Source: a virus (Duplodnaviria > Heunggongvirae > Uroviricota > Caudoviricetes). From it: a DNA stretch of 46,106 nucleotides. Below the pieces are notes generated by a model. The model saw nothing but the letters and a program-made list of their open reading frames with translations, had not been told where the DNA came from and searched no databases. Below, in pieces: positions 4,675 to 9,418 of this stretch. The stretch lies in IMG/VR virus record IMGVR_UViG_2939127364_000005; one strand, written 5' to 3'. Position 1 is the first letter of the stretch. Each line of letters opens with the position of its first letter. Made by a program: the position numbers and the translations under genes.

Positions 4675-5558
4675 TCAGCTGATACTGATACCTGCTGTGG
4701 ATTTTTTCATCACCACAACCAGCAGATCGCTGATACTGGTTGTTGGTGTCCAGTTATTCGCTCCTGATGAAGATACGGTGAATGTCAGTGTCAGCGTCCC
4801 CTGTCCGGCAGGCATATCTATAACTGAGGAAAATACGCCCTGAGCATCCGTCGTGGACTGATTAAAAATCTCCTGACCATTGCGGGTCACTCTTAACCGG
4901 CAGGTTGAATACCAGTATGACTGTTGGTTATTACTGTTGAAATTCTCATGCTTACCACCGCGGAATAACACTGGCGGTATCATGACCTGCCGGTCAAATT
5001 TCTGATCATCACTGATTCTTACCGTGATGGTGCCACTGGCATAAGTGCTCGTGCGGGGGAAAGACTTGCTGACCGTTTTGACAATATCGCCTTCAATCTG
5101 ATTGGCTGACAGTTTCCCCTTAATCTGACAGTTCTCATTAATCGTGACGTTGTTGAGCGTCCCGGAGTTCGCATTCACACTGCCACTGATATCCGCATTT
5201 TTAGCGGTCAGCTTTCCGTCCGGTGTCAGGGAAAAGGCCGGAGGATTGCCGCCGCTGGTAATGGTGGGGGCCGTCAGGCGCTTCAGGAACACTTCATTCA
5301 TGAATATCTGATCACCCTGACCAACAAACATCGGTTTTGTGTTGCCATTCGCAGGATTAATCATCGCAATCCTGTCTGCCGCCAGCAGCACCTGACTCTG
5401 CATTCCTGCTGGCGTATTCTCAATACCGGCACCGATACCCGCAATATAAAGGCGTCCGTCCTTCATCTGTTGCAGCTTCACAGCCCACATGCTGTTCAGA
5501 TTATTATTTGTATCAACCTGAACCTTCTGTATCTGCTGGATCGCTGCACTCTGGTCTT
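4675..5558 (-). pseudogene. J: Tail tip / host specificity protein J, C-terminal fragment, separated from the rest of J by an IS insertion
   Basis: Translation (...[20 protein letters not shown]...[50 protein letters not shown]...) aligns to the lambda J C-terminal region; the final 150-200 aa diverge from lambda. Confidence 0.85.
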
Positions 5559-5630
5559 TGTAGTGGCACACTAAATTTGGCCACCTGATGAAAGGTGATA
5601 TTCTCACCACAACACAAAACAGGTGACTTA

Positions 5631-5942
5631 ATGAACAAGAAAACCAAACGAACCTTCACCCCTGAGTTCAGGCTGGAATGTGCACAGCTGATTGTTGATA
5701 AGGGCTACTCATATCGACAGGCCAGTGAAGCGATGAATGTCGGTTCAACCACGCTTGAGAGCTGGGTACGCCAGCTCAGGCGAGAGCGCCAGGGTATTAC
5801 GCCCTCTGCCACACCCATTACTCCAGACCAGCAACGTATCCGCGAGCTGGAAAAGCAAGTTCGCCGTCTGGAGGAACAAAATACGATATTAAAAAAGGCT
5901 ACCGCGCTCTTAATGTCCGACTCGCTGAACGGTTCACGATAG
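5631..5942 (+). CDS. IS3-family transposase OrfA (helix-turn-helix/leucine-zipper part); AGGTGA ribosome-binding site upstream
   Basis: [22 protein letters not shown]...[15 protein letters not shown] resembles IS911 OrfA as recalled; AAAAAAG slippery heptamer at 5891-5897. Confidence 0.85.
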
Positions 5943-6808
5943 CCGCCAGACTAAGTGACAGCCACACGGTTGTCAGCCTGTGTTCTGCTCTGGAAATACA
6001 CCGCAGCAGTTACCGGTACTGGCGAAAACGACGCGATACGGTTAATCCGGCACGAGTCAGGTTGTGCAGCGAAATACGCCGGGCGTGGAACCAAAGTCGG
6101 GGCTCTGCGGGCGCGCGCACTCTGGCTGAAATGCTGACTCAAAACGGCGTCCCGATGAGCCGTTACCGTGCCGGACGTCTGATGAAATATCTGAACCTGA
6201 GCAGTTGTCAGCCCGGAAAACATCAGTATAAAAATGCCCGTCAGGAGCATACCAGCCTGCCGAATCTGCTTGAGCGTCAGTTCGCAGTACCGGAGCCAGA
6301 CCGGGTATGGTGTGGAGATATTACGTATCTCTGGGCAGGAAATCGCTGGTGCTATCTGGCGGTTGTTATGGATCTTTTTGCCCGCAGGGTTATCGGCTGG
6401 AGTCTGTCAGCGCATGCCGATACCGCACTGATAAGCAGTGCCCTGCGGATGGCCTATGAGACGCGTGGCCAACCCCGGGATGTCGTGTTCCATAGCGACC
6501 AGGGAAGCCAGTATACAGGCCTTAAATATCAACAACTTCTCTGGCGTTGCAGAATAAATCAAAGCGTCAGTCGGCGGGGAAACTGCTGGGATAACAGCCC
6601 CATGGAACGCTTCTTCCGCAGTCTGAAAACAGAATGGGTGCCAACGAATGGTTACGCAGGCAAGGACGAGGCCCGGCAGCAAATTAATGATTACATATTG
6701 AACTACTACAACAGCGTCAGACCTCACCATTATAACGGTGGGCTGACGCCGGAAGAGTCAGAGAACAGATACCATTTTTACTGTAAAACCGTGGCCAATA
6801 TTACTTGA
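5895..6808 (+). CDS. IS3-family transposase OrfB (DDE catalytic domain), expected to be made as an OrfAB fusion by -1 frameshifting at 5891-5897
   Basis: -1 frame is open from the slippery site; translation has the integrase-like core (WCGDITYL..., HSDQGSQYT..., [12 protein letters not shown]...); 5' boundary approximate. Confidence 0.8.
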
Positions 6809-6816
6809 CCACTACA

Positions 6817-9418
6817 CTTCCAGTTTCTTATTGACGGTCTGTGTGATTTCATTGCTGACATCCGTAATGGACGTCCTGATTTCAGCCAGGTCAGGCGCAA
6901 GCTGACCGTTATCAATCTGCGTCCACAGCTCCTGAGCCAGATGGGTTTTCCCTATCTCGCCTTTGAAAAAATCCAGATAGCCTGATGCATCATCACTCGG
7001 CTGACCGACAGCCTCCACGAATGCCGATTTGCCAACGGTGTTCACACTGCGAACGTAAAAATAATAATCATAGCCCGGTTTGATATTGATACTGGCGGCT
7101 ATCCAGTACAGTGCCGTACCAAGATAACGCGCGCTGGTTTCAACCTGCCTGATATCCGCAATCCGTTTTTCCGAGAACCAGAACTCAAACTGTACCGTCG
7201 GGTCATAAACCGCAAGATGCGGCGTGGCGGTTATCTGAAAATAGCCCGGCGTCAGCTCAATCCGCGACGGCGCTGCCGGTGCGGCAATCCGGAACGATAC
7301 CGACGCCGGATCGCCCTGCTGCCCCCACGCATTTACTGCCCGGACTGTCAGCCTGTAGTTCCCCAGCGCCAGTTGTGTGAAGCGGTAAGTGGTTTCCGTC
7401 GTCCGGGCCGTGCTGACCAGCCGCTCACGGCCGTCATCCGCTGCCACGGTCAGGCGAAGCAGGAAGCTCACGCCCTTCACCACCTTCGGCGTGTCCCAGC
7501 GGGCCAGCACCTGGTATTCCCCGCTGTCTGCGGTGACTTCTGCGGTCAGGTGCTGCACCGCTGGCGGCGTGACACCATTTACCGTGCCGCTCTGGTCGCC
7601 GTCAAAGTGCGCCCCGTTATCCACGATGGCCTCTTTTTCCGGTACATGCTGCACGGCGGTGATGGCATACGTGCCGTCGTCGTTCTCACGGATACTCACG
7701 CAGCGGAACAGGCGCTGGCGCAACGTCGGCAGCTTCAGCCCCCATACGCTGTATTCAGCAACGCCGTCAGGAACACGGCTCACTTTCACCTTCACGCCGT
7801 CGGTGACGGACTGAACCTCCACGCTGACCGGATTGCCACTTCCGTCAACCAGGCTTATCAGCGTGGTACCGGAGGATGGCAGCGTGATTTCACGGTCGAG
7901 CGTCAGCGTCCGGGTCTGGCTGTTTACCGCCAGCACGCGCCCGCCGATGCTGATACCGGCATAGTCATCATCACAGATTTCAATGACATCGCCCGGCACA
8001 TGGCGAAGCCCTTCTGCGCCCACGCTGAAGTCCACGGTCTGCGTTTCCAGCAGTTCTGTTTTAATCAGCCACAGCCCGGCGCGATGTGCCTGCCCCCGGC
8101 TGGTACAGCCAAAGGCATCCATCTTCGTGACATTACGACCGTAACGGGCAATGGCCTGCGTGTCCTCCACAAGCTCTGTCGCCGTCTCCCAGCCGTTATT
8201 CGGGTCAATCCAGTTCACCTCAACGGCATTATGGCGGTCCTTCAGGGCGCTGAAGCTGTAGCGGAACGGCGCACCATCATCCGGCATCACCACATTACTG
8301 CGGTTATAGGTCCACACCTTATCCGACGGTCGGTCCTGCACGAACGTCAGCGTCTGCCCGTTCCATACCGGCATACAGCGCATCGCAGAGCAGAAATCAC
8401 TGAGCACATCCCACGCCTTGCGCTGTGTGGTCAGGTACGCATTACAGGTGATGCGCGGCTCCGTGCCGCCAAAACCGTCCGGCACCGACTGATCGCAATG
8501 CTGGCCGATGACATACAGCGCCCATTTGTCCACATCCGCCGCACCAAGACGTTTCCCCATGCCGTAGCGCGGATGGGTCAGCATATCCCACAGACACCAG
8601 GCCATGTTGTTGCTGTATGCTGGCTTAAACGTTCCGTCCCAGATACCGCTGTATTGCCGCGTCTGCGGGTTATAGTTCGACGGCACCTGCAGAATGCGCC
8701 CGCGAAGATGATAATTACGGCTCACCTGCTGGCTGCCGAACTGCTCCGAATCCACCTGCACGCCGACCAGTGCCGTGTTCGGGTAGCCCTGTTTCACATC
8801 GATGATTTCGGTGTATGACGACCAGAGCGTTTTGTTCTGCAGCTGGTCTGTGGTGCTGTCCGGCGTCATCCTGCGCATCCGGATATTGAACGGGCGCGGC
8901 GGCAGGTTACCCACCACCACCGAGGCCAGATACTGCGAGGTGGTTTTGCCCTTAATGGTGATGTCTTTTTCCGTCACCCAGCCACCATTACGCTGGATCT
9001 GAACCAGCAGGCGGACTTCCGACGGATTCCTGTCCCCCTTTGAGGTGGTTTCCACCAGTGCCTGCACGCCGAAGGTAAAACGCAGTCGGTCAATGTTTGC
9101 CGACGTGATGGTCCGGGTGATCGGCGTGTCGTATTTCACTTCCGTACCCAGCACCGTCTCGGAGCCGGAGGATTCAAATCCCTCCGGCGGTGTCTGCTCC
9201 TGCTCACCGGCCCGGAACACCACCGTGACGCCGGAGATATTGGTATTCCCCTCACTGTCCAGCACTGGCGTACTGTTCAGCAGCACGCTTTTTAATCCAT
9301 CCACCGGACCTTCAACCGGCCCTTCGCTGATGGCATCGATCACACTCAGCAACTGCGTGGACTTCAGGTTGTCCTTCGCTTCGCGCGGAGTATGCCCCTT
9401 ACTGCTGCCTTTACCCAT
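6817..9418 (-). pseudogene. J: Tail tip / host specificity protein J, N-terminal about 867 codons, truncated by the IS insertion
   Basis: [41 protein letters not shown]... near-identical to lambda J N-terminus as recalled; reading frame runs into the IS right end and stops after 2 codons. Confidence 0.9.

Follow-up and report, generated by a model that had tools for sequence, protein, structure and literature searches.

Disruption of lambdoid prophage genes by insertion sequences (ISs) has been widely described for enterohaemorrhagic Escherichia coli, and precedents include IS629 in O157 prophages, lambda r32 (IS2) and the 'crypticogen' mutants. These systems have in common that an IS in a lytic gene makes an otherwise intact prophage defective. 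Here, the same outcome is described for IMG/VR virus record IMGVR_UViG_2939127364_000005, a stretch of 46,106 nucleotides (nt) that is referred to as the window. It contains a prophage in which the tail-tip gene, J, is split by an IS3-family element and cro is split by IS5. The prophage differs from the described cases in being a very close relative of lambda, in having lambda immunity and in having been struck by two IS families. The biology is already known: this is an ordinary prophage disabled by transposable elements, and no new mechanism is involved.

The explanation that we favour, with a probability of roughly 0.93, is that an active, widespread IS3-family element of E. coli entered J of a near-lambda prophage at att-lambda, thereby duplicating CTT, and that IS5 separately split cro. 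The near-lambda character of the window was established by tblastn using lambda proteins, and the prophage is placed at att-lambda because ybhC follows int. The IS3-family element would have transposed into J after codon 867, with the usual 3-bp duplication.

The inserted element, which was both read from the window and computed, is exactly 1258 bp long. Its 5' end is TGTAGTGG and its 3' end is CCACTACA. The terminal inverted repeats are imperfect overall, with 27 of 45 positions matching, and the outermost bases are perfect (8/8). Following the frameshift site within orfA, the -1 frame is open to position 6808, and the resulting OrfAB fusion is 392 residues long with zero internal stops. The fused protein matches NCBIfam NF033516 (IS3 family transposase) with a score of 360.6 bits relative to a cutoff of 160 (E = 1e-107), and identical copies are labelled in RefSeq as 'IS3 family transposase, programmed frameshift' (WP_085968792.1). 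The element is a member of the IS3 family, as defined by orfA and orfB with their frameshift, the helix-turn-helix and rve domains, the TG...CA ends and the short target duplication. It would be expected to transpose via a circular, copy-out/paste-in intermediate. A sequence-only reading of the window had described an approximately 1258-bp, IS3-family element with TG...CA ends; this description is base-exact, and both the Pfam and NCBIfam signatures agree with it.

The closest relative is the WP_085968792.1 element itself, whose sequence, ends and frameshift site are identical to those of the window IS and which differs only in its insertion site. ISEc31 (the RefSeq name), which is located between lom and J in O55:H7 strains, belongs to the same family and shows 92.7% nt identity over its full length. 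It aligns over 1259 bp, is ~7% divergent from the window element and likewise resides in a lambdoid tail region. A further likeness is to IS911, a distinct element of ~1.25 kb that has a similar terminal repeat (TGAAGTGGCACACTGAATTTGGCCAC, compared to TGTAGTGGCACACTAAATTTGGCCAC here), the A AAA AAG motif and 3-bp duplications.

The CTT repeat is a true target duplication, because empty sites in two other strains have one CTT. In strain CFSAN061771 (locus L003), which encodes a gpJ of 1160 residues, the reconstruction is matched at 60 of 60 bases spanning the site, with one CTT present. In strain BS15R-A (locus L005), ybhB/ybhC is likewise occupied by a sister prophage, and the two window alignments abut there with a 3-bp overlap. 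In addition, an 800-bp query spanning the reconstituted junction matched at least 30 genomes at 99.9% as a single, ungapped piece, and all of these are annotated with an intact gpJ. Thus the 3-bp CTT duplication that had been proposed earlier is confirmed by uninterrupted alleles with a single CTT at the exact junction. Comparison with related strains places uninterrupted J alleles in many E. coli genomes, including the sister prophage at the same site.

When the IS and one CTT are removed in silico, a single open frame of 1160 residues results (1161 codons including the stop). The sequence-only reading had divided J into parts of 867 and 294 codons that share one frame after excision. Translation of the excised sequence bears this out, with 867 codons on one side and 293 plus the stop on the other; the length of 'roughly 1161-aa' given for the whole protein has to be adjusted to exactly 1160 residues, as 1161 is reached only by counting the stop. 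All six gpJ Pfam families are found above cutoff in the reconstituted protein, namely FNIII-A_GpJ, Phage-tail_3, Ig_J, Ig_J_second, Phage_Tail_Tip and Ig_GpJ_C, and their order is that of lambda-type gpJ. The truncated open reading frame (ORF) holds FNIII-A, Phage-tail_3 and both Ig/FNIII domains, and the fibre (Phage_Tail_Tip) and the receptor-binding domain (Ig_GpJ_C) are left in the orphaned 3' part. The break, at codon 867/868, falls between Ig_J_second (716-818) and Phage_Tail_Tip (872-1000) and aligns to approximately lambda J residue 840. In lambda gpJ, residues 809-861 form an alpha-helical shaft, with the straight fibre and receptor-binding domain lying below it (PMC11101478). As the break is in this shaft, truncated J is without the straight fibre and the receptor-binding domain.

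The IS end provides a stop two codons into the junction, and late transcription would consequently yield a J protein of 868 residues. This protein would retain the hub domains, the two FNIII/Ig domains and about half of the alpha-helical shaft (the upper part); the remainder of the shaft, the straight central fibre and the receptor-binding domain at the C terminus would be missing. The 3' fragment has neither an evident promoter nor an evident start of its own. A consensus scan found no minus-strand, promoter-like site directed from the IS toward this fragment, and a terminator-like hairpin (consensus match only) is present in the IS on the J-sense strand at 6250..6234. The 3' J frame remains open across 18 codons of the left IS end, as far as a GTG at 5610, producing a hybrid ORF (4675..5610, minus strand) of 311 residues. 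With J truncated and the 3' fragment having no evident means of expression, particles would be made without a functional central fibre and are therefore expected to be non-infectious; this loss of tail function and infectivity would follow from the structure of gpJ. The insertion may, in addition, exert a polar effect on lom, stf and tfa.

Two points weigh against this interpretation. A strict requirement for the J receptor-binding domain is not guaranteed, because in Gifsy-1, Stf with the lipopolysaccharide core can serve for both adsorption and ejection on smooth hosts (PMC12312913), and full-length Stf and Tfa are encoded here. Further, the exact J insertion was found in none of the other genomes searched, and it therefore depends on a single assembly. 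The missing shaft and fibre are nevertheless integral, structural parts of the tail tip.

Megablast using a 1858-bp, J-IS-J query found no identical junction in 5,426 complete E. coli genomes, and the ten places that cover at least 80% of the query represent either ISEc31 or insertions at different sites. An exact, 38-mer junction scan of genome contigs returned 0 matches, an exact-protein look-up of the 868-residue, truncated J found none on record, and the cro::IS5 junction is without a counterpart in the complete E. coli genomes. As these junctions are absent from all other genomes searched and the flanks are undecayed, both insertions look to be recent and strain-private events. The absence of the exact J junction elsewhere, combined with the multicopy nature of the IS in E. 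coli genomes, could also be explained by an assembly artefact, in which the IS was misplaced in J and the real gene is intact. This is extremely improbable, as a misplaced repeat would not generate a perfect 3-bp duplication with contiguous, in-frame flanks, and complete genomes that were assembled independently have the same element elsewhere within J.

The abundance of the element was determined using the 1258-bp sequence as query. It matched 2,673 E. coli records, 937 of them at 99% or higher and many at 100%. Of the 5,426 complete genomes, 2,415 contain copies, which are found at numerous unrelated sites; the median is 2 places per genome and the maximum is 17. The copies in E2863, 503025, 503829, FORC_069 and 10034940-2 are identical to the window element at 1258 of 1258 bases. 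Seven other copies were inspected for target duplications: four have 3-bp duplications (ATA, AAT, TAT and GAA), one is flanked by GTTC, which contains a 3-bp TTC repeat, and two have flanks that do not match, probably resulting from rearrangements.

The same IS also interrupts J in C10/C11, ~60 bp from the window site, as well as in AH01, E200139 and the O121 lineage; the J insertion in WP2-W18-CRE-03 is probably at the AH01 position, as judged only from a similar match. It interrupts lom in 20KM0223N and A8, FII in E2863 and, in a lambda-like sister prophage, the lysozyme gene. The independent insertions at eight loci (L001, L002, L007, L011, L012, L013, L014 and L016) comprise at least four other J sites, in both orientations, two lom sites, FII and the prophage lysozyme gene. 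Five of these loci were aligned and are identical to the window element at 1257 or 1258 of 1258 bases; the other three share transposase WP_085968792.1. Further targets are a prophage exoribonuclease gene, melB and ypjA. The IS3-family element is probably active in E. coli today and frequently lands in lambdoid late genes. As lom, FII, lysozyme, exoribonuclease, melB and ypjA are struck too, J is not claimed to be a specific hot spot. An orientation bias relative to J was likewise rejected, because the transposase is antisense in the window, C11 and AH01 and co-directional in the O121 lineage. A nested mobile-element insertion is seen in E. coli MS 21-1 (L015, 4394-7627), where an IS3-family transposase gene beside a truncated J is split by a group II intron that carries the ltrA reverse transcriptase/maturase.

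Apart from the insertion, J is not decayed, as it has the full set of domains and is nearly identical to the intact allele of CFSAN061771. Of the 1160 residues of the reconstituted protein, only 12 are not shared with that allele. There is no further stop or frameshift, and the last ~1.2 kb of the gene is ~100% identical to it on both IS flanks. This fits the earlier proposal that the insertion is recent relative to any decay of J. Relative to lambda gpJ, the protein has the same Pfam architecture and 96.4% amino acid identity over lambda residues 1-836, whereas its last 293 residues are 54.7% identical to lambda residues 839-1131. In addition, the helical shaft is 28 residues longer than that of lambda. 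The divergence of the C-terminal part suggests that the receptor of this J may be other than LamB, which is used by lambda. The nucleotide sequence of the fibre and receptor-binding part (4675-5558 and 6817-6911, minus strand) is ~96% identical to that of phages Chlobot and PhiR70_1.

The drop from 96% to 55% identity after residue 836 could indicate that two prophages each contributed one half of J, with homologous recombination between two copies of the IS having linked them, and the same IS does join J to unrelated DNA in other strains, such as the O121 lineage. Such a chimera is exceedingly unlikely, as the same CTT is present on both flanks and one uninterrupted allele, that of CFSAN061771, is 99.9-100% identical over 400 bp on each side. 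Placement of the IS at a mosaic boundary of J was also rejected by sliding identity: the lambda boundary is ~200 nt upstream of the IS, the BS15R-A boundary is at least ~250 nt downstream and CFSAN061771 is continuous, so that neither boundary coincides with the IS.

Relative to lambda, the proteins from Nu1 through I are full length with 87-100% amino acid identity, cI is 98.3% identical, cII is 100% identical, and O and P are 99% identical. The genes exo, bet, gam, kil, cIII, int and xis are present and full length. The Q, lysis and nin genes are unlike those of lambda; they are full length and 100% identical to those of the BS15R-A sister prophage. The statement in the sequence-only reading that the rest of the genome is intact holds at the level of ORFs for all of the other lambda and sister-prophage genes compared. 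The presence of two ISs in one prophage might suggest long residence, with the J insertion being an old event and one lesion of many in a cryptic prophage that was already decaying. This is highly unlikely when the undamaged state of J outside the insertion is taken together with full-length head, tail, replication, recombination, int/xis, cI and sister-type Q/lysis genes, and with an IS copy that is 100% identical to copies elsewhere.

The second lesion is in cro. The transposase of the element matches NCBIfam NF033581 with 365.8 bits (cutoff 140; E = 1.4e-109), and the IS is 99-100% identical in nucleotide sequence to annotated IS5 copies elsewhere. The flanking TTAG is a 4-bp duplication of a YTAR-type target, which fits IS5. 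The distal cro piece matches lambda Cro residues 21-66 at 100%, and the proximal piece matches residues 1-22 at 95.5%, with the high-scoring segment pair crossing TTAG into the IS5 end. As the two ISs belong to different families, have different duplications and are 28 kb apart, they represent two independent events. A second, separate insertion in cro had been recognized from the letters of the window, and it is now assigned to IS5 with its TTAG duplication, excision of which gives lambda Cro. The attached description of an 'essential lytic gene' requires a caveat, since lytic growth requires cro only under some conditions. Because IS5 lies between pR and nutR/cII/O/P/Q, a polar effect on the entire rightward early operon is expected, in addition to the loss of Cro.

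Table 1. Features of the J and cro insertions in the window (positions are those of the whole stretch).
Feature	Position	Strand	Evidence or remark
CTT target-site duplication, left copy	5556..5558		Single CTT at the L003 empty site
CTT target-site duplication, right copy	6817..6819		L003 empty site; L005 alignments overlap by exactly 3 bp
IS3-family insertion sequence, apparently intact	5559..6816	+	Many E. coli genomes carry copies with 100% identity; ends are TG...CA
Left terminal inverted repeat, TGTAGTGGCACACTAAATTTGGCCAC	5559..5584	+	Matches the right end when that is reverse-complemented
Right terminal inverted repeat, GTGGCCAATATTACTTGACCACTACA	6791..6816	+	End comparison
orfA of the IS, 103 aa, HTH_Tnp_1	5631..5942	+	PF01527, E = 8.8e-13
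A AAA AAG slippery heptamer, -1 programmed frameshift from orfA to orfB	5891..5897	+	Sequence reading
orfB frame, rve DDE catalytic domain	5897..6808	+	PF00665, E = 6e-27; families related to rve also match
Truncated J ORF: 867 J codons, hybrid codon GTG (Val), TAG from the IS end	6812..9418	-	Excision and translation
Orphaned 3' J: codons 868-1160 and stop	5556..4675	-	293 codons and stop; excision, domain search
IS5, 1195 bp, in cro	34520..35714	+	Flanking TTAG at 34516-34519 and 35715-35718
cro, split after codon 20/21 by IS5	34377..35776	-	Excision restores the 66-aa lambda Cro

The region directly downstream of cI differs from that of lambda. Tblastn with lambda proteins gave no rexA or rexB match there, and the position is occupied by an ORF of 301 residues (36709-37614, plus strand), which encodes a strong homologue of BstA (PADLOC BstA, E = 3.6e-106) and has no Pfam or NCBIfam match. 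BstA is a prophage abortive-infection protein that is encoded downstream of cI, with cognate anti-BstA (aba) DNA at the 5' end (PMC8585504).

Both lesions are in lytic functions, and no damage is seen in cI, sieB, lom or the gene for the BstA homologue. In other strains, moreover, the same IS has repeatedly entered late genes of related prophages. These features raise the question of whether the insertions were selected, with the host gaining by keeping defence and fitness cargo (BstA, SieB and Lom) while losing lytic killing. We consider this to be unlikely. Two events cannot separate selection from chance, and as most prophage DNA encodes lytic functions, random, tolerated insertions would fall there anyway. 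Moreover, a J knockout does not prevent cell killing on induction, and the same IS strikes lom and host genes too. A more specific version, which we hold to be a little more doubtful still, is that both private insertions represent the selected 'grounding' of a lambda-type prophage in which BstA has replaced rexAB, with the recurrent insertions in J, lom, FII and lysozyme being the population-level footprint of this process. If true, the host would retain immunity and the defence cargo, and the phage would lose the capacity to spread.

Under the favoured explanation of two separate, recent insertions, the record is best annotated as a lambda-like prophage that is defective, is disrupted by two ISs and contains J as a split pseudogene, and not as an inducible phage. 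Infectious particles of this phage would not be expected from the strain. The prophage also provides a clean, datable case of the first steps in prophage domestication, as there are two lesions and all else is intact.

The tail genes are arranged as in a lambda-type operon, with J following H-M-L-K-I and preceding lom/stf/tfa. The order on the map is H, M, L, K and I (14380..9481), J (9418..4681), lom (4608..4012) and stf/tfa (3944..4). The stf gene (585-3950, minus strand) is full length and encodes a protein of 1121 residues with phage_tail_N, fibre repeats and a collar domain, whereas in the lambda reference, NC_001416, the side fibre is annotated as two coding sequences, orf-401 and orf-314. 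The adjacent tfa (1-585, minus strand) encodes a product that is 95% identical to lambda Tfa.

Outside of the tail region, genes for tRNA-Thr (tgt) and tRNA-Asn (gtt) are located at 29010-29165 (minus strand), between the Q-type antiterminator and the lysis cassette, and this arrangement is common to the sister prophages L005 and L011. A Rha-family regulator of 254 residues (26119-26886, minus strand; PF09669) is encoded by an open frame in the window, and its counterpart in L005 is annotated as frameshifted.

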